Counted from the first letter of the whole stretch, positions 13,776-34,400 are shown. The stretch: DNA of 63,379 nt, filler included, from Reclinomonas americana ATCC 50394 (GCA_048213135.1; 19 parts of 19 records of this genome joined end to end with filler, not necessarily neighbours in it); one strand, 5' to 3'. The notes: generated from the sequence alone by a model not told the origin. Made by a program: numbers and translations.

Positions 13776-14700
13776 GAGGAGAGGGGAAGGAGAAGGGGAA
13801 GGAGAAGGGGAAGGGAAGGAGAAGGGAAAGGAAGCGGAGGAATGAAATGGAGGAAAATGAGAGAGAGGCAAGGGGAGGGAGAGGCGAGGGGAGGGAGAGG
13901 CAAGGGGAGGGAGAGGCAAAGGGGAGGGAGAGGCAAAGGGGAAGGGGAGGCAAGGGGAGGGAGAGGCAAAGGGGAAGGAGAGGCAAAGGGGAAGGAGAGG
14001 CAAAGGGAAAGAAGGCAAGAGGAAGAGCGGCAAGAGGAAGAGCGGCAAGAGAAAGAGGGACAAGAGGAAGAGAGACAAGAGGAAGAGAGACAAGTGTAAG
14101 AGAGACAAGAGGAAGAGATACAAGAGGAAGAGATACAAGAGGAAGAGAGACAAAGGAAGAGAGGCAAGAGGAAGAGACAAGGGAAGAGAGACAAGGGAAG
14201 AGAGACAAGGGAAGAGAGACAAAGGAAGAGAGACTAAGGAAGAGAGACTAAGGAAAAGAGACAAGAGGAAGAGAGACAAAAAAAGAGATACAAGAGAAAG
14301 AGAGACAAGAGGAAGAGAGACAAAGGAAGAGATACAAGAGAAAGAGAGACAAAGGAAGAGACAAGGGAAGAGAGACAAGGGGAAGAGAGACAAGTGAAGA
14401 AAGCACGAGAAGGAAGCCAGGGAAAGAAGCAAGGGAAAGAGGCAAGGGAATGAAGCAAGTGGAAGAGACAAGTGGAACGGAGGCAAGGGAAGGAAGCAAG
14501 GGAAAGCGGCAAGGGAAAGCGGCACGAAGGAGGCGAGAGAAAGTAGGAAGAGAAAGTAAGAAAAGGGAAAACAGTGAAGAATGAGGCAACTGGGAGAGGG
14601 GAAAGGAAGAAGATTAGCGGAGGGACGATAGAGTAGAGGAGAGGAGCGGAGAAAATTGAGAAGACTGAGAAGAGAAAAGTGAGGTTGAAAGACAAGAAGA
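13776..14700 (+). repeat. Purine-rich low-complexity tract between convergent genes
   Basis: gaggcaaagggga and acaagaggaagagag variants. Confidence 0.85.
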
Positions 14701-14838
14701 AACAGAGAGACGCAGCAGACAAGAAGAAAGATACACATCTGTGCGGCGGCTGCTGGAATGGGCAGAATTCATTGGCGACACCTACCCACAATAACTCTTC
14801 TCTCTCTATTCGCCTTCCCCCTCTTGCACCTCTCGAGC

Positions 14839-16193
14839 TCAATCGTAGATCGGGAAGAAGCACTTGAAGGCACCCTCGCAAAACTCGGCGGGGTTGTTGA
14901 ACCGGCGGTTGCGATTGAGACCGCTGATGGCAGTCATCTCTTCGTCGCTCAGCGCAAAGTCGAACAGTTCGATGTTCTCGCGCAGGCGCGACTCGTGCAC
15001 TGACTTGGGCACGATGCTGGTGCCGCGCTGGAGGCCCCAGCGCTGCGGGGGAGGGAGGGATGGGTGTGGAGAGAGGAAGAGAAGAGAAGGGGGCGGGTAG
15101 ATACCAGCGCAATTTGAGCCGGGGTCTTATTGTGGCGGGCGGCGCAGGTGGTGACGACTTCGGACTGCGGGTGGGTGGGTGAGTTATCGGGTAAGGAGGG
15201 AGGAAGAGAGACACGAGAGACACGAGAGACACGAGAGGCAAGAGAAGCAAGAGTGGCAAGAGAGGCGAATGAGGCAAGAGAGGCAAGAGAGAGGCAAGAG
15301 AAGCAACAGAGGAAAGAGAGGCAACAGAGGAAGAGAGGCAAGCGAGGCAAGAGAGGCAAGGGATGCAAGAGAAGCAAGAGAAGCAAGAGAGGCAAGAGAG
15401 AGGCAAGAGAGGCAAGAGAGGCAAGAAAGGCAAGAGAGAGGCTAGAGGGGCAAGAGAGGCAAGAGAGGCAAGAGAGGCAAGAGAGACAAGAGGCAAGAGA
15501 GGCAAGAGAGACGAGAGAGGCAAGAGAGGCAAGAGAGGCAAGAGAGGCAAGAGAGGCAAGAGAGGTAAGAGAGACAAGAGAGAGGCAAGAGAGGCAAGAG
15601 AGGCAAGAGAAGCAAGAAAGGTAAGAGAGACAAGAGAGACAAGAGGCAAGAGAGGCAAGAGAGACGAGAGAGGCAAGAGAGGCAAGAGAGGCAAGAGGCA
15701 GGGGAAGCAAGCGAGGCAGGGGAGGCAAGAGAGGCAAGCAAAAGTCACCTGCAACACACTCTCCTCCATCTGCGCCCCGCCGAGGGGCACATACGAGCCG
15801 GCGCCCAGCGGCGAGTACGCCGTCACGCGCACTCCCTCCTCGCGGCAGAAACGCAGGAGGCGCTCTTGCGTGAGGTACGGGTGCATCTCGACCTGGTTAA
15901 CGGCCGGCGGAATGTTGGCAAACGATAGCAGCTCACGCAGAATGACGGTGTTGAAGTTGGCCACGCCCAGGTTGCGCACGAGGCCGGCGTTGGCGCACTC
16001 TTCGAGCGCTTGCCAGGTTTCTTGGAGGGGGACTCGCTCCGGCTCCATGCAGGGGTACTCGGCAGTGAGCTGGGGAGGAGGTGAGATGGCGGAGAAAAGG
16101 GGAGGGTGGGCTGGGGGGTGACTCACGTCGTAGAACCATTCCGGAGGGTAGCGCGTTGCGAAGGGGACGAAGCGGAGGGGGACGGGGAAGTGG
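14839..16193 (-). CDS. Aldo-keto reductase, xylose-reductase-like (5' part missing in gap)
   Basis: Exons 16127-16193, 15749-16069, 15105-15164 and 14839-15042 give HFP..RYPPEW, LGVANF, NQVEMHPYL, TAYSPLG, TPAQIALRW, IVPKS and RRFNNP. Confidence 0.93.
15200..15740 (+). repeat. Nonamer repeat (gaggcaaga)n in an aldo-keto reductase intron
   Basis: Visible tandem array. Confidence 0.9.
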
Positions 16194-16551
16194 CTGTGAT
16201 GCGGGGGATGAGATGAGAGGGGGGCAAGGGGAAGGAAACGAGGGAGTGAAGGAGAGATGGGGAAGGAGAGGGGTGAGAAAGAGAGGGGGAGAAGGAGAGA
16301 AGGGAGAAGGAGAGGAGCCAAGGCGAGAGAGAGGGAAGGAGAGGGAGCCAAGGAGAGAGAGAGAGGGAAGGAGAGGGAGTGAAGGGGAGGGAGTGAAGGA
16401 GAGAGAGAGAGAGAGTGAAGTGGGGAGGGGGGAGAGAGAAGTAGAGGCAGANNNNNNNNNNNNNNNNNNNNNNNNNNNNNNNNNNNNNNNNNNNNTTAAT
16501 TAATTAANNNNNNNNNNNNNNNNNNNNNNNNNNNNNNNNNNNNNNNNNNNN

Positions 16552-23023: not shown

Positions 23024-23518
23024 CTCTTTGCGGTCGTTTCTGCCTTCTTGCCGCAAGCAATCACGCCAGCCGCGGCCCAGGAAGCGCGTTTTCGCGTCAC
23101 GGTCTCCTGGATGCAGCATGAGATCGAACCGAGACAGCAGTCCCGTCCGACCTCCAGCACCTATCTGGTCACATTGCGGGGCAACACGGTCCACGAGGAA
23201 TTCGTCCACAGGGCCGGCCGCCGCGCCAGGGGTATCCGCCAGGCGTCGCGAGAAACCGCGCTGGGCGAGGACATGAACGGGCGCTTCACAACGAAGTGGA
23301 CCGTCATCAGCCAGAATACGCTTCTGCGCGTTGCCGCGCGGCCTTCGCATACCTTCGCGATCTGGCTGCGAACCGACGGAACCCGCTCATGCACCGCCTC
23401 GGCGGAATGGCGTCTCAAGCCCGGCCACAGCGTGTACGAGACATGGGCCCCCAAGCGGCGTGTGAAGATGCTCTTTTCGGAACCGACCGAGCAGAGCGCC
23501 GAATGCGAGGTCCTGTGA
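23024..23518 (+). CDS. Bacterial secreted hypothetical protein, paralog 1 (5' truncated)
   Basis: Intronless. Signal-peptide remnant ..PAAAQE, and the motif RPSHTFAIWLRTDGTRSCTASAEWRLKPG. Confidence 0.8.
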   Translation, partial: LFAVVSAFLPQAITPAAAQEARFRVTVSWMQHEIEPRQQSRPTSSTYLVTLRGNTVHEEFVHRAGRRARGIRQASRETALGEDMNGRFTTKWTVISQNTLLRVAARPSHTFAIWLRTDGTRSCTASAEWRLKPGHSVYETWAPKRRVKMLFSEPTEQSAECEVL

Positions 23519-23532
23519 AGATTTCCGCGCGA

Positions 23533-24060
23533 ATGCATGACCTTGCCTCGCCGCGGGTCCTCGCGGTCGGCGGCGTGCTCGCGGTCTTGGCTTGCCTGCC
23601 GCAGGCCTCATCCGCCGAAGAGGCGAAGTTCCGCATCACGACGAGCTGGATCGTCAACTATGTCGAGCCCAAGCCCCGATCGGTCATGCAGCAGAACTCG
23701 TATTTCGTTTCCCTCAAGAGCGACGGCACCGTGACGGAGCGGACCGAAACCAGGATCGGAAACGGCTGGCCCGGTGCGAATCTCGTCGAGACCGATACCG
23801 AGCTCGGCGGAAGCGACAGCCGACCGCGCAGAAAGGTCTGGCGGGTGGTCAACGAGACCACGCTCGTCAGGCTCCTTGCGCGCGAGTCTCACACCTTTGC
23901 GATCTGGCTGCGCACCCAAGGGAAGGATTCCTGCACGGCGACGCTGGAGTGGCGCCTGAAACCCGGCTTCACGCTCTTCGAAGCGCCGAAGAAGCCGGGC
24001 AAGCCCGTGGTTCGCTTCGCCGAGCCGAGCTGGCCCACCGCCCGGTGCGACGTTCTGTGA
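23533..24060 (+). CDS. Bacterial secreted hypothetical protein, paralog 2
   Basis: MHDLASPRVLAVGGVLAVLACLPQASSAEEAKF, and RESHTFAIWLRTQGKDSCTATLEWRLKPG. Confidence 0.85.
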   Translation: MHDLASPRVLAVGGVLAVLACLPQASSAEEAKFRITTSWIVNYVEPKPRSVMQQNSYFVSLKSDGTVTERTETRIGNGWPGANLVETDTELGGSDSRPRRKVWRVVNETTLVRLLARESHTFAIWLRTQGKDSCTATLEWRLKPGFTLFEAPKKPGKPVVRFAEPSWPTARCDVL

Positions 24061-24251
24061 GGCGGCATCTCGCACTCGCTGCGATGGCCTGCCTCACCCT
24101 TCTCGGCACCGCTCGCCCTGCCCGCGCCCAGGAGGTTCGTTTCCGGCTGTCCCTGGCCTGGACGATTCCCGAGATCGAGCCGCGGGAAAGGATCAGGCCG
24201 GCGAGCCGCACGATCACGGTCATCCTCGGCAAGGGCGGCGCGGTCAAGGAG
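24057..24251 (+). CDS. Bacterial secreted hypothetical protein, paralog 3 (3' truncated)
   Basis: GTG start overlaps the upstream TGA. RRHLALAAMACLTLLGTARPARAQEVRFRLSLAW..EIEP matches the paralog N-terminus. Confidence 0.75.
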
Positions 24252-24351
24252 NNNNNNNNNNNNNNNNNNNNNNNNNNNNNNNNNNNNNNNNNNNNTTAAT
24301 TAATTAANNNNNNNNNNNNNNNNNNNNNNNNNNNNNNNNNNNNNNNNNNNN

Positions 24352-24801
24352 GCCTGCCCTGCCCTCGCCCAGGAGGCACGCTTCCAGCTCTATCTTTCCT
24401 GGACCGAGCCTGAGATCGACGAAGAACCGAACGAGATCGTCCGGACGATCTATCTCACGCTTGGCAAGGATGGGACGATTACCGAGCAGATTCGTCGCGA
24501 TGGACTCGGGAGACGCCGGCCAGGGCTATCCCAGCAAGGCATCCTTGGCGAGGATGTCGACGGACGGGTGAAGGGGCGCTGGAAGGTCGTGAACGCAGGG
24601 ACGCTCGTGCGTCTCACCGCCGAGCGCTCGCACACCTTCGCCATCTGGCTGACCACGGACGGCAAGGCCTCCTGCTCGGTCAGGCTGGAATGGCGGTTGA
24701 AACCCGGCTTCAAGACCTATGAGCGATGGGACCTGCGCGAGCAGGACACGGTGAGGTTCGCTCAGCCCGTCGTCAACCGGACGTCCTGCTCGGCCTTCTG
24801 A
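24352..24801 (+). CDS. Bacterial secreted hypothetical protein, paralog 4 (5' truncated)
   Basis: PALAQEARFQLYLSWTEPEID, and ERSHTFAIWLTTDGKASCSVRLEWRLKPG. Confidence 0.8.
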   Translation, partial: ACPALAQEARFQLYLSWTEPEIDEEPNEIVRTIYLTLGKDGTITEQIRRDGLGRRRPGLSQQGILGEDVDGRVKGRWKVVNAGTLVRLTAERSHTFAIWLTTDGKASCSVRLEWRLKPGFKTYERWDLREQDTVRFAQPVVNRTSCSAF

Positions 24802-25526
24802 GCCCGGATCAGCATATGCGGGCGGAAGCGCGGGAACAGGTATTCGAAGCTCCGGAACGGCAGCTTCTTCAGGCTCTCCGACGGACTCTGCCAGAGCATC
24901 TCGACCTCGACCGGCTTCAGGCCCGCCTCCCGCAGGCAGGCCTCCAGCTCCGGCCGCGTATATTCGCGCCGGTGAACGTATTCGTGCTCGAAATCGACCT
25001 CGGCGAAGAGATCCTTCGGCAAAGCGACGATCGAGCGGTTGAAGATCAGCTTCAGGATGTTCCGCAGCCGCGCGAAATTGTCGGTCGTGATGAAGATCTG
25101 GCCGTTCTCGGACAGTGCCGAACGCAGCTTGCGCAGGATCGTGGTCGGGTCGATGCGCAGATGTTCGATATTGTCGAACCAAAACACCGCATCGACGCCG
25201 TCGAGCGGGGAGACCCAGTCGGGCGCCGAGATATCGCCGGCGAACATCCCCGCGAAATTGCCGTAGAGATCGCTCTCGATCGCCAGGGTCTCGGCGAAAT
25301 CCACCACGAAGACCGAAGCATCCAGATGCTTCTGGACGACTTCCTCGACGAAAGCGCCACCCGCCCCAAGAGACAGGACGCGAGGACTGCGCCCCAATGC
25401 GCTCAGCGCCATGTTCGCCGAGCGATACTGCCGGTAGAAGCTGCTTTCGAAATAGGACTTCATGTGGAACTTGCGCTTTTCCAGATCGATCGACGACCTG
25501 AATTCATCCGGCGTCAGCGCGTTCAT
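24762..25526 (-). CDS. Bacterial class I SAM-dependent methyltransferase
   Basis: RVLSLGAG motif I, VFVVD, DAVFWFDNIEHL, GQIFITTDN and HRREYT. Confidence 0.85.
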   Translation of the reverse strand: MNALTPDEFRSSIDLEKRKFHMKSYFESSFYRQYRSANMALSALGRSPRVLSLGAGGAFVEEVVQKHLDASVFVVDFAETLAIESDLYGNFAGMFAGDISAPDWVSPLDGVDAVFWFDNIEHLRIDPTTILRKLRSALSENGQIFITTDNFARLRNILKLIFNRSIVALPKDLFAEVDFEHEYVHRREYTRPELEACLREAGLKPVEVEMLWQSPSESLKKLPFRSFEYLFPRFRPHMLIRAQKAEQDVRLTTG

Positions 25527-25694
25527 GCAGCGCAACCTTCCCAAGCAATCTCCGGCAGGCTGATAGCGTGGACAGATTAAATAATTGTCCTCCGNNNNNN
25601 NNNNNNNNNNNNNNNNNNNNNNNNNNNNNNNNNNNNNNTTAATTAATTAANNNNNNNNNNNNNNNNNNNNNNNNNNNNNNNNNNNNNNNNNNNN

Positions 25695-26338
25695 ATGCTC
25701 GCCGCAGCCAGGGACGAATGCCTGAGGATCCGCTGCGCCAGCGCGTTCGCCGCCGGCAGCAGCTCCTCATGCGGCACCACCGCGTTGATCAGCCCCATCT
25801 CCAGCGCCCGCTGCGGTGTGAACGGATCGCCGGTCAGCAGCAGCTCCATGGCGCGTTTGCGCCCGGCCAGACGCGGCAGGCGCTGCGTCCCGCCGAAAGT
25901 GGGCGGCATGCCCAGATTGATCTCGGGCTTGGCGAACATCGCCCGCTCGCTGGCGATGGCGAGTGGCACCGCCTCGGTGACCTCGCAGCCGCCGCCATAG
26001 GCGAGCCCGTTCACCGCCGCGATCACGGGTTTGCCGAAAGCCTCCAGCCGCGCCGTCAGCTTCTGCCCGCGGCGGACGAAATCGCGCACCGCCTGCTCCG
26101 GCCCGGCCGCGACGCTCCGCGAGAACTCGTGGATGTCGCCGCCGGCCGAAAAGGCGCGCTCGCCCGCGCCGGTCAGGATCACGGCCCGGACCGAAGGATC
26201 GATCTCGATCGCATCGAGCAGTTCGAGCAGGCGGTCGATCAGCCCGTAGCTCAGCGCATTCAGCTTCTCGGGCCGGTTCAGCGTCAGCGTCGCGATCGCC
26301 TCGCGCTGTTGAATCAGGATGGGATCATTATCGGGCAT
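25695..26338 (-). CDS. Bacterial enoyl-CoA hydratase/isomerase (crotonase) family, 3' truncated
   Basis: LTLNRPEKLNAL, AFSAGGDI, KPVIAAVNGLAYGGGCE and PEINLGMPPTFGGTQRL. Confidence 0.95.
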
Positions 26339-26392
26339 GGCCTTGGCGTCCTTCCGGTTTCAGGTCGCAGCAAGGCTGCGGCCAAGGCTTGA

Positions 26393-26422
26393 CGATGTAT
26401 ACTCACTGTACGGTATACATCG
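26393..26422. promoter_or_regulatory. Inverted repeat, probable TetR operator
   Basis: Perfect CGATGTATAC-N10-GTATACATCG between the divergent genes, overlapping TTGACG (26389-26394) and ending 4 nt before the TetR ATG. Confidence 0.8.
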
Positions 26423-26426
26423 AGGC

Positions 26427-26855
26427 ATGGCCGAACCCGACAAGCCGACGCGCACCCGCATCATCGAGGCCGCCAGCAAGCTCTTCTATGGCGAGGGCAT
26501 CCGCGCCGTCAGCGTCGATGCGGTGGCTGAGAAGGCCGGCGTCACCAAGCGCACGCTCTACTACCATTTCGAGAGCAAGGACGAGCTCGTCGCCGCCTAT
26601 CTCGAGGCGCGCGACCAGCCCAATCTCAAGCTGATGGCCGGCTGGTTCGACAAGGCCGAAGGCGGGCTGCCGCAAAAGATCGAGGCGATCTTCCAGAACC
26701 TCGCGCGCTCCGCCCGCCATCCGCGCTGGAAGGGCTGCGGCTTCCTGCGCACCGCCGCCGAGCTCGCCAACCTGCCCGGCCACCCCGCAATCAAAAATCG
26801 GCGCGCGCCACAAGGCCGGCTTCGAGCGCTGGCTCGCCAGTGCCTGCGCGACCAC
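26427..26855 (+). CDS. Bacterial TetR/AcrR transcriptional regulator (3' truncated; probable homopolymer frameshift at 26793-26797)
   Basis: TRTRIIEAASKLFYGEGIRAVSVDAVAEKAGVTKRTLYYHFESKDEL and WKGCGFL. Confidence 0.95.
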
Positions 26856-26955: not shown

Positions 26956-28434
26956 ACGCGTGTGAGCTGCCCCCACGCGTTCCGCCGGTTCAGGGGAGAT
27001 GATGGCCTCATCGGCAGGCGCTCGGTGTTGGCGAGGGGCAACGCCGCTGGCCTCTGCGGCCGGTGCTGGTCCTCCGACACGATGTTGCACGTGCATAGAA
27101 CTGCGTACCCAGCAACACAGAGGATGATGAGTAAACGGACATCATGCATTCTCGTGGGAATGGTCAAGTATACTAGTCACCTCGCCACAGCGTGTGCACC
27201 GACACCTGGAGCGACCGACGAGGAGTCTCCGGCTGGTCGAGACAGCAGCAAATCACGCAGGCTAAGAAGGCGCCCAATCGCTGCACTCTGCGTCACGCCG
27301 GCGCCTAACTTGGAGACAAGATCGTCGAGCTGTTCCTTGACGGACAGCTCCAAGTTGACGCAGGCTCTGGGGGTCGTGTTCTTCTCCTCCACCGGTTTCC
27401 GGGGACGACCTCGCTTGCGCTTGGCCTCGGCTACGGGGCCAACGGCATCGTCACCGCCGTCAAAGTCGGCGGGCACGGGCACGGCCGCGACCGGCACACC
27501 ATCGTCGCCGGCTGCGACGCCTTGCGCTTCATCTGGCAGCACAGCAGCCGGTGCGAGATCGCCGTCGGCAGCGGCGACGACTGGCTGTAGGGGGACAGCT
27601 TGCGGCGGTTGCGGTGGCTGCCGCGGAGACGAGGGCGCTGGGGCTTGCGGCTCGGCAGGTGCCGGCGGTGGTGGTTGCCGTGCCGGTGGCGGTGACATTA
27701 CAGACGGTGGGGAAATTGGTGGGGCGGCGCCTCGGCGGTTCTTCACACTGGCACTGCGCGCACGGGACGATTCCGACACACTGGACCGTGTGGACCCAGT
27801 GGTGGTAGCGGTTTGCGCGCGAGACGATGCAGGGCGCGGCCGCTTCCGCGCAGGAGACGAGGCCGACCGAGATGATGTTGCCTTCGGCGCCGACCGCTCC
27901 AGTCGCACTGCGAGTGGTGACAAAGGAGCGCTGGCCTCGCCCCCGCGCTCCGCAGACTGTGCCCGCCGTCGTCGCTTGCCCGCCTGCATCCCAACAGGCG
28001 ACATGACAACATCCGCATTGTGCGTGGAGCTTGATCCGCGAGGAGGTCGAAATGGCACAGCGTCGTCCTCCATGGGCAGAGCGCGCGCGGCAGCGTTCAT
28101 CCGCACACTTCCGCCGAGTGTATGGCGCCTCTGTGACGGCTGCTGTGAGGGAGAGTGGTGTGTGAGCACACACGACATTTGCATTTCGCGCCAAGATGAC
28201 GCGGATGACGTGCGGGGTCAGTGGGTGCAATGTTGAGACTCTTTCTGCGTGCACTCCCCAGGCAGAGGTGTTCCTCGTGGAGTGCGAGCACGCCGTGCGT
28301 GCGTGTGCACATGGAAGGGGGGGAGTAGTGGACCGCAATGGGTGGAAATGACCGACAAAACGCACCACAGACTCTTCCGCTGATTCGCAGGCCGCCAAAA
28401 GCACTTCCAGTCCATCACCATGATGTACACTCAT
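26956..28434 (-). CDS. Spliced putative DNA-binding protein with an AT-hook and a ribbon-helix-helix-like segment (3' end in gap)
   Basis: Pro/Ala/Ser-rich disordered region, KRKRGRPRKP (about 27393-27423), then RACVNLELSVKEQLDDLVSKLGAGVTQSAAIGRLL. The exon 1 assignment (MSVHHGDGLEVLLAA) is tentative. Confidence 0.6.
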
Positions 28435-28494
28435 GTTGCAGTGAGCGGCGGCGCGCGGCGATGCGTGGAAGTGACCTTTGGATTTTTCTTGAAT

Positions 28495-31400
28495 TCACCG
28501 AAAATCTGGTGGAAGCGTCCCTTTAATAGAAATCCGACACAAACAAAGAAAGTGAGCGCAGCACACTTGCACAACTATGCACAGTGAGAAACGACTCACT
28601 CTTCTGTGCAGCCTGGCGCTGAACTTGCCGAACGCAAAGTGCTGCGTAAACCACGCGGTCTCCTTGCCTGTCCTGCGCCGCTTTTGCGTGACACGGCCTT
28701 GTGCGTCCACGTGCGTCGTCTTGCGTGCAATGATTCGCGGCACCTGTTTGTTGAAATGGGGGACGATACATCGGCTGAAACGATGCTCTCCCACGAGGCT
28801 GTGGCGAGAAAGAAAGCCAAGAAGCATTAATAAGAAAAGCCGCCCACACAAACGTGCCGACACATACAAAGCACTCGAGCTCCGGGCACAGCGCACGCAA
28901 CAACTCGACAACAAAGTTGTGGAAACCATCACGATCTCGGGCAAGTTGCGCCCACAGAGACCGTCGTAGAGCAGCGAAGTGCTTGGCAATCGTTCGAGAG
29001 GCAAATTTTCCGAACTTTGCCTGCTGGCATTGCAGCTGTTTCAGCCGTTTCCGATACTTTCTCATGTAGAGTCGGCAGAAGGCCTTCCCAATCTCAAGCA
29101 CCTCCACCCCACGACCATCTGAGAGCACGTAGAAAGCAAGAACGATCAGTCCGACAGCTACCACACACGACTGTGGTGCAGTGAAACACTCACCGCGACC
29201 AACGGTGAGGCAAGCGAATGCAAGTCGTATTCCAGGGTCGATCGCGATAATGGACTCGAACTCTGCCATGAGCTGGCACAGCAGGACCTCATAGTCGGCT
29301 CGTGGACGGCCGGCGTCCACTGCCGGCTTGCGCGTCCGTTGGCGAGGTTTCGCTGATGATGCTGAAGCTGCTGCAGGTGGCGCAGAACTTGCGGGAACAC
29401 GGCCACGATCTGTGACCTCGGCACCCGTTGGAGCAGTAGCAGCAGTCGGAGCAGCAGTCGGAGCAGCAGTCGGAGCAGCAGTCAGAGCAGCAGTCGGAGC
29501 AGTCTTAGCAGAACGCGGCAGGTTTTTGCGGTACTCAGTCTCCACGTGCAGACCGTCCAGGGCCGAGAGATGCAGAGCAGCCAACTTGTGGCGAGCGTGG
29601 CGATTAGCCCACGCTCCACGCGCAGCCGCCTGCTGACTGGTGATGACCGAAACTGGTGTGCGCATTGCGTCGTCCCACGCCACTCCGGCGACAAGCACCT
29701 CCCCCAGGTAAGTCGCTCCGTCCAGATCTGCTTTTGCTAGCAAAGCGCGTAGCAGCAGCGCACGGACAAAGATATCGGCGTCCGCGTCTGCGGGGTAGTA
29801 GACTGTATGTGAGAACCGAATACCACTGTTAACCAGCGCATCACCGGCCGGCACACACTCACCTCGCTGTCGACAGTGAACAAGGCGCTCCAGGCATTCG
29901 CGAGCGTGTGCGGACTTGCATTCGTCCTCGAGCCAGAGTATCATATCCTCCCAGATTTCTCCAGAACGCAAGTCAAATGCCGCCGCCGCTCGGCCAACGC
30001 CATCCCCCGTGTACTTCACAAACCACCTTGGCGCGAACGCCGTTGTGTCGATGTGCATGCGGAGTCGCCCGCGCAAATCATTGGCTCGCCGTGGCTCAAG
30101 CAGGAATCGCTGAAGGCAAGCGAGTCGTCGGCATTCAATGGTTTGAATGGCAATTAGCGCTGCAAACCAGGTGATGAACAGCGATTAGTTTGATCATTGA
30201 GGGTCGCTTGCAGTGGGCAAGATATATAACGCGCACCAACTTCAAGCCGGATGGAAGCAAGGCCAACTGCAGCGTCGTCATGATCACAATTGTACTTGAT
30301 CTCGCTGCGCACGCTCTCCGGAGAAGATTCAAGCTCGTCATCGGAGCTGACAGCAACGACCAGGGACCGCAATCCAAGAAGCGCAATGCATCGAATCTGA
30401 GAGACACTCGCTGCGTGCGAAAACACAAAACTTAGCACAAGACGAATTACACATCACTCCGCTTTCCCGTTGTCTCTTCTCTCCGCCATTTCGCACTCCA
30501 TGTCTACTTCATCTTCCTCCGCTCTGCGTCTCTCCCCCCACCTCTCCCTGAGTCCCCAATACCGCTACCACTACGCTCACGTACCAGCAACAGCGTGGCG
30601 AACTTGCAGTGTGTTGGTCAAAGTCGTCATTGCTGTGAGTGCATTTCGAGCAGCGTCCTCCACCAGCCAACCAGCGGCGTGATACCGTACATCGACGTCT
30701 GCTCCTCCGACAAAGAGCGAGAGAACAGAGACATCACGATCGTCGGTCAGCACGCTATGCGGCAGGTGGTGCTCCAGATCCAGATCCTCCTCCGCCGTCA
30801 TCTCCAGCACCTTGTGTCGTGCGTCAAACAGAAGATGTCGCATCCTCGTCAGCCGACAGCCTGCAATAATCGCACGCAACGAGTCGTGCGCCACCGACGA
30901 GACAAACTCCGCAAGAGACAGAGACAGTGGGCAGCCTCGTAAGAACACGCTGTACATCGCCGCACGCGCTGACTTCGCATCCGTGCCGCTGGGTTCAGAC
31001 GCGACAAAATGACTGAGCGCAAACGCAGACGCCTCGGTGGCAACACTCCAGAGTGTCCGGCCAGCTGCAGCGAAGAGCGAAGTCGACAATTGCCGCACTT
31101 CATCACTCGCTACGAGTGTATCAACAACCAGCTTGTCCAGTACCGTGATTAGCAACTCGCGGCTTTTTTCTGTCATGTCGATCATCGATCAACAACGAGT
31201 CAGTGAACAGGGGAATAAATGACGAATCGCACACACACATGCGCGCTGCGTACCCTCCTCGCCCGCGCGGCAACTGCGGCATTCCTTGGCGCACTCCAGC
31301 CGTTGAGTCAAGGCAGTGACTTTACGCGTTCGGATCGCGGACTGTGCGTGCAGCATGCCGGCTGCGTCTTGGTAGACATTGGCCACGGCATCCAGCACTG

Positions 31401-34400
31401 CCGACGACCATCGCAACCAAGCGGTAGTGAATGTGACGCCGGCTTGTGCGCGAGCAGATTCGTGAAGGAAGGTGCGCATTCTGTTTCTAACAGCGGTCCG
31501 AAACGCGACAAAGGCCTCGCCTATCCATCGCACAGTCGAGTGTGAGAAAAATGGCTCTGCATAACACACCTGCAGCAAACAACATACCACACTCAGTCGA
31601 ATGCACGCCATCGATTCCGGTAGCCATGCTGGCGAACAGCAAAGAAGCGGCTACCACTTTTTCGAGTGCGTTGATGCAGCGAAGCGTGTCATCGCGGTGC
31701 TTCTGTGTCAACGGCGTGGTGACGATCCGGTTGACAGCCGACGGCACGACATGCAGCGTCGCACACAGCAGCGTGTGTAGTGACCAGCTGTCGCCCTCGC
31801 TCTCCGCAGCACCGTGGCCAGCAAGCGTGTCGTCGAACCATGGGGCGTTGGTGCCCAGCTGCGCGTGCAACAGTCGGAGACCGTCGCAGAGTTGTTGTCG
31901 CAAATCGGTGCGTGCCGGCATGCAGGCTCCCGCAGGCACACCGGCAGCAGTTGGAGCTCGAGATGGTGGGAGCGAAGGGCTGGCAGTGGCCGGGGCTTGT
32001 CGCAACAGGTCGGCCAGCAACTCGACACAGCGGACGATCCGATCCACGGCACTCGAGCAGGTGTGCTTTCGCGTGAAAATGCTGGCATCGGCGACTCGCA
32101 TCGACAGCTCAAGCAGCCTACGAACGGCCGTAACCGCATCGTGGATGATCTCGACAGGCATGTCGTCAATCTGGTCACCGAGGAGAGCAGAGCGCGAAAG
32201 GCGGGGCCACGGTGGAACGTCGACGTCGGCACCAGATAAGACGTGGAGAATGTGCGTAAACGCAAACAGCTCACGTTGCCTCTCTCCCGTGTCAAACGAT
32301 GAGCGAGCGACACGTGCTGCTGAACCTGCAGGGCACGCGCAGTCAAGTTAGCTACTACTGCGCGAAGAACATGAAAGCAGGAAGTGTCGGCCCAGCAACA
32401 CACACCACCCACCCACACACCTTTCACAAAGCGCAGTGCCAAATCAGCAAGTGTTNNNNNNNNNNNNNNNNNNNNNNNNNNNNNNNNNNNNNNNNNNNNT
32501 TAATTAATTAANNNNNNNNNNNNNNNNNNNNNNNNNNNNNNNNNNNNNNNNNNNNAGCTGTGTGTGTCATGATCAGTGACCACGCGTGAGCAACAATATG
32601 GACGAATGAATGGCACCATACAAACCTCGTGAGCGAGGCGTGTTCTTCTCCTTCTTCTTCTTCGGCGCCTGCACCTGGCTCCCGACTGGTGCAGCTGAAG
32701 TCGACTCGGCTGCTAGCACTTGCGTGCGCATCTCATTGGTGCCGACTGCTGGATCCACCTCGTCGCCATCGGCCTCCCCCTCCTCGAGCTCACCGTCGTC
32801 GTCGTCGTCATCGTCGTCGTCGACACCAAGAGCAGCCGCCACGAGCTCGGCAACCACCACCTCCTCGTCGTCGTCGTCGCTGCTGTCATCCGCCTCGTCG
32901 ATGACCACAGCGGCGACAGTCGGCATCGCGATCGGCAAATTCTCAATGTACCGAAAAAAGACGTCGTCGGCCGTCGAGTACAAGACCGCCAGGTCGGCGG
33001 TCGTATAGAGGTTGCCGATGCGGTCGCTCACCAACTGTGAGGCCAGTGTGTGCTTGACAATCAAGTCAACGAGTTCCTTGATGGATTTTTTCATCCACAC
33101 TTTCCGCTTTTTGCCCTTGATCCGGTCCGCCTTGTTCACTACGGACGCCACAGCTTGACCGATGAGGTGCGCGATCGCTGTCACGGTCTCCTCACAGTCA
33201 CGCCCGTATATCGGTACTGTGACAATATCAACACCGGCGGTGTGCATGTCGTCATCTGTGTGCGATTCACAATTATTCTTCAATCCGCAGTCATCGAGAA
33301 GGACACTGGCAGTAAGGGAAGAGTTCAAACGAACCCATGGCAGTCGGGTCCTCGTCGCCGCCCTTGGCTGCATCTGCCGCTGCATCAGCATCGACCGGAG
33401 CCTCGAGTTTGCATCGTGCCTTGTTCAGCATGCTCAAGATCTTCCTCCAACAGCGCTCTAAACATGCCCAACATCAGCAACAACGCGTCACACGAGCAGG
33501 GCCGGCAGTGGGGAGGGTACTTGCGCAACTGAGTCCGATTCGACCAGCGTGGAAGGCGGAGTGCAGCTGGTGCAGGGAAGACTGGAATCGTTGCAAGACC
33601 TCGCCAGTCACCGCATCGGTTTCGATAAAGGCTGCGCAGCATGCGACAGTGAGGATAACACACTGGAAAATTGACACGAGTGGAGAGCAAATGGTTGCGG
33701 CACCTTGTTGTAGGTACTGCAATCTTACAACGTCCGACAAAATTCGCTCCAATGCGACGCGGGTATCCCGGCAATGTTCAGTGAATTCTCGCACCAACAC
33801 GTCATCGTCGCAGATGGCAGCAAATAGTGGCATGTCGCGCAAACTCTCCTTGAACGGCTGGAAGTCTGCGGGAAAGAGACCAAAGGCAGCACCGAGGCAT
33901 GCAGCATTCTTCGCAGCCCCCCAGAATGAATTCGCTGCACGTGAAGTCAGACAACAATGACACACACTCACACATACACACAGGCACAATGACGCGATAT
34001 CACCAAATTGCAAGAGAACATTCACCTTGCAGTGTTGCAGCCTTGGCGGCGTCGACGGCCTCGTCGGGAGCACCCTCCTCCAACGTGATGACGACGGGCA
34101 CAGGCGCGTTGAGAATCGGCATATACTCTGCATGCATGCATCCGCGTCACGTCCGATTGGTCAGCACGTGGACGACTCACAGATGAAAACATGTTGGCCT
34201 ATAGCTCCAAACAGACCTTCGATCACGGGCATGGCGTTCCGTCTCGCAGTGCATGCCAATTCCGCGCTGTCGACACGGCCTCCCACACGTACGGCATCTT
34301 GCACGAACTTGTCCAACTTAGCCTCCACGTGTAGCAGTGCAGACGAGGCCAGCTTCCACGGAGACGGCGCGGCATCCTCCTGCAAAATGGCATAAGTAAG

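Follow-up and report, generated by a model that had tools for sequence, protein, structure and literature searches.

A possible truncated, nuclease-incompetent Fanzor-derived module encoded by the last exons of a spliced gene from a Reclinomonas americana assembly

Does a spliced gene in the assembly of Reclinomonas americana ATCC 50394 (GCA_048213135.1) encode a Fanzor-like protein that has lost its catalytic end, and could such a protein still act as an RNA-guided binder? The gene lies on the minus strand of a window of 63,379 nucleotides, which is the whole stretch of DNA that we analysed. An initial annotation had described its product as Fanzor-like, apparently lacking the zinc finger and RuvC-III, possibly nuclease-dead and RNA-guided, with any omegaRNA lying within 28200-28780. 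The window is made of 19 contigs (1.0-8.5 kb; GC content 0.50-0.68) with linkers of the form N44-TTAATTAATTAA-N44 between them, and is not one stretch of a genome; the contig that carries the gene spans 26956-32455 (5500 bases; GC content 0.594). We found that the gene is spliced, has an open frame and closes without a zinc finger or a RuvC-III motif. The best reading of its 3' part, which we hold tentatively and at somewhat less than even confidence, is a truncated, nuclease-incompetent remnant derived from a Fanzor.

Our model of the gene on the minus strand has nine exons, four upstream (U1 to U4) and five downstream (A to E; Table 1), which together form a single open frame of 1081 codons that is partial at its 5' end. 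All eight introns run from GT to AG; they measure 31, 84, 174, 77, 75, 75, 76 and 79 nt, six of them falling within 75-84 nt. At this base composition the chance of meeting no stop codon is 5.6e-7 over 441 codons, 1.5e-8 over 553 codons and 4.8e-16 over 1081 codons, and the longest open reading frame (ORF) has 553 codons, as against 333 in 200 shuffles. In a leave-one-out test, a codon-usage model trained on the exons chose the annotated frame every time (8 of 8 exons). Cross-training gave the same result, with exons A to D correct in four of four cases after training on U1 to U4, and U1 to U4 correct in four of four after training on A to D. For exon D, frame 1 scored +0.106 (+0.039 when cross-trained) as against -0.096 and -0.378 for the other frames, which supports the frame that the initial annotation had given this exon. 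The score of exon E, spread over 30 codons, is ambiguous and was -0.234 or +0.152 depending on the training set.

About 600 residues are spliced in frame upstream of the Fanzor-like part, which comprises the last five exons (30159-28431). The nearest language-model clusters of exon U3 are alpha-solenoid families of the HEAT/TPR type (0.92-0.93), with a weak recognition value of 1509. The gene probably starts near or beyond the end of the contig. Between exons U1 and U2 the frame changes, and the change is bridged only by the in-phase 31-nt intron; it may alternatively reflect an indel or an assembly error. A single-sequence AlphaFold2 model of 28877-30160 had a mean predicted local distance difference test score (pLDDT) of 37.2. 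Exon B holds a 12-nt tandem repeat at 29426-29514 (unit CAGCAGTCGGAG on the plus strand; about six copies), whose translation is a T/A/P-rich segment with the REC-like part before it and the RuvC-I-like motif after it. Separately, the initial annotation had missed the in-frame splice to some 600 helical-repeat-like residues, as well as a second in-frame acceptor at 28142 that leaves 321 codons open.

At the 3' end of the gene, the codons for ...FSARLHRR lead straight into a minus-strand GTGAGT donor whose first base is 28599; the contig has five GT[AG]AG sites on this strand, this donor included. Left unspliced, the frame (ORF 28495..29040, 181 amino acids) meets a stop at 28497-28495. Splicing to the nearest in-phase acceptor, the AG at 28522-28521, removes a 79-nt intron and adds a peptide of 29 residues that ends at a TGA (28433-28431). 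The donor, the short last exon and the unspliced stop had all been called correctly in the initial annotation, and the small last exon is further supported by the size of its intron, which matches its neighbours (75, 75, 76 and 77 nt).

No motif that could complete a nuclease follows. We scanned all three frames of the minus strand between 28900 and 26956, where the contig ends 1.64 kb downstream of the 28599 donor, and found no [TS]SxxC, CxxC-x(5-40)-CxxC, DxN[AG][AGS]xN or NA[AS]xN; seven isolated CxxC motifs occur there. A RuvC-III motif of the RD.NA..N type was not found by regular-expression scans, searches with tail profiles gave no significant match, and the downstream ORFs matched no TnpB-type family (Pfam E<=1, NCBIfam E<=10, PHROGs E<=1). 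A Glu six residues before a zinc finger is likewise absent from the encoded protein. The motif logic of the initial annotation is right for Fanzors, and its statement that the zinc-finger and RuvC-III motifs are missing downstream agrees with these scans. It had also named a downstream exon supplying the catalytic Glu, the zinc finger and the RuvC-III Asp as an observation that would speak against it, and the same minus-strand frames (28900-26956) contained neither a zinc-finger nor a RuvC-III motif.

If the protein is a relative of Fanzor or TnpB, it stops where the zinc finger should begin and, with no RuvC-III Asp, would not be an active nuclease, because its RuvC active site cannot be completed. 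The earlier suggestion of a nuclease-dead protein therefore stands in part: given kinship with Fanzor or TnpB, the missing zinc finger and RuvC-III argue for it, whereas the kinship itself gained no support from alignments.

Coding signal is absent on both strands from about 28630 to 27650, and minus frame 2 is coding-like at 27640-27180. Past the TGA, at about the distance expected of a decayed zinc-finger/RuvC-III remnant, a Cys and an R.ANxxK stretch can be made out by eye. We rejected such a remnant, as a Fanzor tail profile matched no domain in the read-through translation (X in place of the stop). A TnpB-like zinc-finger pattern occurs just once in the window, as an out-of-frame CxxC-x9-CxxC-x4-DxDA at 30827-30994 (minus strand, frame 0), within exon U3; its tail-profile E value of 0.84 is at chance level, and it lies upstream of the RuvC-I motif, which is the wrong side.

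Are the last five exons derived from a Fanzor? We consider such an ancestry fairly probable, judging from the motifs and from one language-model look-up. By eye, the motifs follow one another as in the Fanzors of giant viruses: an RFLLEP-type motif stands at the start of exon A and AIDPGIR towards the end of exon B; exon C then has a His and, about 15 residues on, an Asp, which is followed shortly by a Gly in LVGEHRF (exon D). This Gly lies, again by eye, at the site where Fanzors have Gly or Pro and not the canonical RuvC-II Glu. An aromatic-rich stretch precedes ...ARLHRR, and IFGEF and a TS dipeptide come next in exon E; the Glu of IFGEF is a possible relocated Glu, and no zinc finger follows it. 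According to the available text of the sources, Gly or Pro occupies the canonical Glu site of Fanzors, their intron densities are like those of their hosts (PMC10530073), and in their arrangement the Glu stands just before the zinc finger (PMC13565253, PMC10530073). The pattern [IVL]D[PLV]G[IVL][RKN] occurs a single time in the six-frame translation of the whole window; since a degenerate six-residue motif can arise by chance, a lone IDPG-type match is not a strong signal.

The look-up used the 553-residue read-through ORF (28523-30184), which was also the query of the homologue searches. DUF8286 accounted for 27 of the 30 nearest clusters, with top scores of 0.95, 0.94 and 0.94. The clusters come from Nucleocytoviricota and Mucoromycota and are labelled 'transposase fragment'; in one of them, PF07282 is also present in 11% of its 643 members. 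For an unrelated orphan, a place among clusters linked to TnpB in this way would be improbable. A search of the literature for DUF8286 found nothing in print.

For comparison, we scanned viral contigs with a short RuvC-I pattern and obtained eight loci, five of which encode Fanzor-type proteins of about 630 amino acids, two of these on contigs of giant-virus metagenome-assembled genomes. One such protein had 307 relatives; among the matches listed, all 120 of 120 carry PF07282, many together with PF12323 and PF01385. In an alignment of 72 sequences, the invariant residues include D455, H518, D530, G535, E583, C590, C593, C607, C610 and D617, which matches the arrangement described for Fanzors, with the Glu close ahead of the zinc finger. 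The IMG/VR loci concerned (L001, L003, L004, L006 and L007), which encode giant-virus Fanzor-type proteins of this size, share a conserved N-terminal extension of about 200 residues that has no Pfam match in precomputed annotations; this extension may correspond to DUF8286.

Searches with the 553-residue ORF in Pfam, NCBIfam, PHROGs and the PDB gave no match of note. No relative was confirmed when viral and metagenome contigs were scanned with protein seeds, and the 10 residues surrounding the RuvC-I-like motif, searched as a degenerate pattern, had no match in metagenome and genome contigs. When the 72-sequence giant-virus Fanzor profile was run against the contig, all six frames scored <=0 bits. 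An alignment with hhalign -glob was discarded as a meaningless end overlap. Profile tests of this kind are weakened by composition, the comparator being extremely AT-rich (locus GC content about 0.20) and the query GC-rich; they are negative all the same. Sequence searches may recognise Fanzors mainly through their C-terminal domain, and because PF07282, present in every listed relative, is the very domain missing here, we give the negative searches modest weight. The Fanzor-like identity asserted in the initial annotation is thus not shown by any alignment statistic; it comes from the order of the motifs and from one look-up below the tool's threshold.

The omegaRNA proposed for this locus received no support. 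The minus strand of 28200-28780 folded to -195.8 kcal/mol, compared with a mean of -197.1 kcal/mol for shuffled sequences (z 0.19; 53 of 100 shuffles at least as good), and the fold of 28150-28440 was equally unexceptional (z -0.16; 72 of 200 shuffles at least as good). A search of the contig against Rfam (E<=1) gave no match. Folding and Rfam are weak tests, and nothing in them favours an omegaRNA in the interval to which it had been assigned.

Signs of a mobile element were also sought. The only inverted repeat is a 21-nt pair at 28144-28164 and 32399-32419, which is 86% complementary, CA/TG-rich and brackets almost the whole gene. We rejected it as a pair of transposon ends, given its low complexity and a target duplication not seen by eye, and it is probably a low-complexity chance match. 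A profile match on another contig (55784-55912; E 0.038, 8.3 bits) was dismissed as noise, with no Fanzor-like context around it. A nested insertion, in which a host intron would begin at the U4 donor and end at some acceptor below 28430, was set aside as well, many in-frame acceptors being possible.

Downstream of the gene lies a further open frame of 346 codons (Table 1), whose final part is the coding-like segment at 27640-27180. In a structure prediction, the 97-residue tail of this ORF forms helices at residues 34-56 and 61-76 with a pLDDT of about 70. A short hydrophobic stretch precedes this two-helix unit, a layout that reminded us of ribbon-helix-helix proteins, which is our own reading only. 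Pfam gave no family for the ORF, and a search with its C-terminal 117 residues gave no homologue. The 28599 donor is in phase with an acceptor at 28143/28142, which has the best polypyrimidine tract of the candidates (0.75) and would remove a 457-nt intron and leave 321 codons open; such an intron would far exceed its neighbours in length, and no coding signal is seen over the initial 480 bases of the exon (28142-27660). The downstream frame may stand as a gene of its own, or it may serve as an alternative 3' exon entered through this acceptor, and we give splicing from 28599 to 28142 a low probability.

How, then, is the locus best explained? If it is a truncated Fanzor-derived remnant, the last five exons would encode a very divergent Fanzor/TnpB-like part with a WED/REC-like region, the RuvC-I Asp and a Gly at the RuvC-II site, from which the TNB zinc finger and the RuvC-III Asp would have gone and whose frame closes 29 codons past the 28599 donor. 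The 3' end would have been lost from a Fanzor gene after it took up host-type introns, with deletion or rearrangement probable and slow decay not, and the truncated part would now stand at the 3' end of, or be spliced onto, a longer helical-repeat gene. Both this manner of loss and a lack of function seem to us most likely. The in-frame upstream splice suggests that a host gene captured a mobile-element ORF as exons, or else that the whole protein is something different. A number of results count against such a remnant. The language-model recognition value was 2012, under the tool's mark of 2300, so the high look-up scores are weak as evidence. With the 553-residue ORF, a word-seeded search of 5.8 billion proteins and an exhaustive phmmer search of 1.84 billion representative proteins each returned no match. 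The 72-sequence Fanzor profile scored -2.4 bits against the spliced translation in hmmsearch, and hhalign aligned the AIDPG motif only (probability 1.7%, P 0.03), a result that is circular, as the profile family had been fetched with a pattern for this type of motif. Comparisons of the profile with shuffles gave z values of -0.4 and 0.86, and 0.09 and 0.79 with a reduced alphabet. No second copy was found in the other 18 contigs (about 58 kb; tblastn, blastn, profile and motif searches), and neither terminal repeats nor a transposase (Pfam) on the gene's own contig. Moreover, 441 Fanzor-like codons and four introns are intact, although a remnant should decay, and a simple transposon relic does not explain the in-frame splice to the residues upstream. 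The clean loss of the end together with an intact frame fits a young, deletion-truncated copy and an old loss with selection on the remainder equally well.

The negative searches would all be expected if the protein were unrelated to TnpB and Fanzor, a long, mostly helical, lineage-specific orphan whose motif resemblances arose by chance. This is a serious possibility, though we find it doubtful. Besides every sequence, profile and shuffle test, it is favoured by the solitary IDPG-type motif, by the sub-threshold recognition value and by the upstream residues, which resemble a generic alpha-solenoid; furthermore, Pfam families were found in 2 of 20 long ORFs from the other contigs (Aldo_ket_red and GEVED), so that orphan sequence is the rule here. 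An orphan accounts poorly for the concentration of nearest clusters in one family set tied to PF07282-bearing 'transposase' proteins of giant viruses and fungi, or for several motifs in the order and rough spacing of the fetched Fanzor family, as seen by eye, and the searches that favour it weigh little where the TNB domain is the missing part. If Fanzor ancestry is granted, the intact frame might instead reflect exaptation, with a selected, nuclease-dead WED-REC-RuvC module on a helical-repeat N terminus forming a putative nucleic-acid binder. We regard this as unlikely. It would fit the canonical splice sites in all Fanzor-like exons, codon usage equal to that of the upstream exons, a catalytic end gone with no recognisable remnant, and the failure to find transposon hallmarks or a second copy in the window; C-terminally truncated TnpBs (TldRs) also still bind guide RNA and DNA, according to the available text of PMC10705468. 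The ancestry it presupposes is itself unproven, however, a young truncated copy would be just as intact, and the proposed RNA interval has neither a structure signal (z 0.19 and -0.16) nor an Rfam match. That an exapted module would further bind DNA under the direction of an RNA derived from its own 3' region, as a eukaryotic counterpart of TldR, we consider distinctly improbable. A variant in which the 28599 donor is also joined to 28142, adding an AT-hook and a two-helix tail, has the in-frame acceptor, its polypyrimidine tract and its open codons in its favour; its likelihood is low, with an intron atypical beside the other introns, 7 of 8 of which are at most 84 nt, and no coding signal at 28142-27660. 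We prefer a remnant to an exapted regulator because no eukaryotic regulator made from a dead Fanzor was found in a search of abstracts that left subscription journals uncovered, or was named in the available part of a 2026 review (PMC13565253). Least probable of all, and very much so, is an active Fanzor with a zinc finger and RuvC-III concealed by assembly errors or lying in an unrecognised exon. The assembly is fragmentary, with contigs of 1-8.5 kb, and one upstream frame change needs an odd 31-nt intron or an indel, but none of the missing motifs occurs within the 1.64 kb downstream, and the other introns are about 75-174 nt; nor would frameshifts hide such motifs, because all three minus-strand frames were scanned.

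The other contigs of the window give the wider setting. Those at 23024-26855 (GC content 0.61-0.68) look bacterial by eye, with a TetR-like regulator and an enoyl-CoA-hydratase-like ORF, whereas most of the remaining ones look eukaryotic or orphan, with long ORFs that lack known families. The joined contigs are probably a mixed bin. No tRNA and no Rfam family was found in the whole window.

Table 1. Features of the gene, its 3' flank and other contigs of the window, with the basis for each
Feature	Position	Strand	Basis and remarks
Exon U1	31588..32347	-	Helical sequence; 5' partial; codon model picks frame (leave-one-out and cross-training)
Exon U2	31254..31556	-	Candidate 31-nt GT..AG intron (31587-31557) links to U1; codon model picks frame
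Exon U3	30585..31169	-	Helical-repeat-like; gene model and language-model look-up
Exon U4	30237..30410	-	Gene model; in-frame link to exon A via 77-nt phase-1 intron (30236-30160)
Exon A	29863..30159	-	Start of Fanzor-like part; RFLLEP..., resembles TnpB N-terminal strand by eye, no statistical support
Exon B	29194..29787	-	RuvC-I-like AIDPGIR at 29245-29225; Asp codon 29239-29237
Exon C	28875..29118	-	Helical linker after RuvC-I; codon model picks frame
Exon D	28600..28798	-	Frame 1; contains LVGEHRF; C-terminal end ...FSARLHRR
Intron D/E	28521..28599	-	79 nt; GTGAGT donor at 28599
Exon E	28431..28520	-	29 codons and TGA (28433-28431); IFGEF, TS dipeptide; cysteines absent
3' flank, proposed omegaRNA interval	28143..28430	-	No coding signal on either strand; no excess RNA structure
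Downstream open frame, 346 codons	27177..28217	-	S/P/A/R-rich, mostly low-complexity; AT-hook-like KRKRGRPRKP; two-helix C terminus
ORF with aldo/keto reductase domain	14237-16450	-	Pfam E 5.6e-19
ORF with GEVED domain	61246-62232	-	Pfam E 4.9e-18

We regard the locus as a lead and not a discovery. If the Fanzor-like reading is true, a spliced, open and cleanly truncated module fused to a host-type protein would make a candidate for a eukaryotic counterpart of TldR; at present the locus falls short of that claim, and it may be an ordinary truncated mobile-element gene. One precedent for its architecture is the CSB-PiggyBac fusion, reportedly a host-transposase fusion gene made by exon capture (PMC2268245). 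As there, upstream host-type exons are, in our model, spliced in frame to an open frame that would be transposon-derived, here at the U4-A junction; unlike there, the captured part is truncated and its transposon origin is unproven.

With Fanzors, the gene shares splicing in eukaryote-like sequence and language-model neighbours among Fanzor-type 'transposase' clusters. An IDPG-type motif like that of RuvC-I, a Gly that by eye takes the place of the canonical RuvC-II Glu, and a motif order resembling that of the giant-virus family of about 630 amino acids are candidate further likenesses. It differs from them in having no TNB zinc finger, RuvC-III Asp, transposon ends or significant model similarity. 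It also has some 600 extra N-terminal residues, an arrangement not described for Fanzors in the available text of the cited work.

As for domesticated relatives, bacteria have repeatedly turned TnpB into nuclease-dead RNA-guided regulators, and those who described this anticipate similar cases among the Fanzors of eukaryotes, according to the available text (PMC10705468). The available part of a 2026 review lists Cas12 and TldR only as domesticated forms (PMC13565253). TldRs are bacterial and have clear TnpB homology, an adjacent guide-RNA gene and a promoter target, whereas the 3' interval here carries no RNA signal. In principle the two are nevertheless alike: the C-terminal truncation to which the initial annotation drew attention is a known TldR trait, and a degraded RuvC site, a C terminus cut short of the zinc-finger and RuvC part, and a setting outside a transposon would be common to both (PMC10705468, in the text available).

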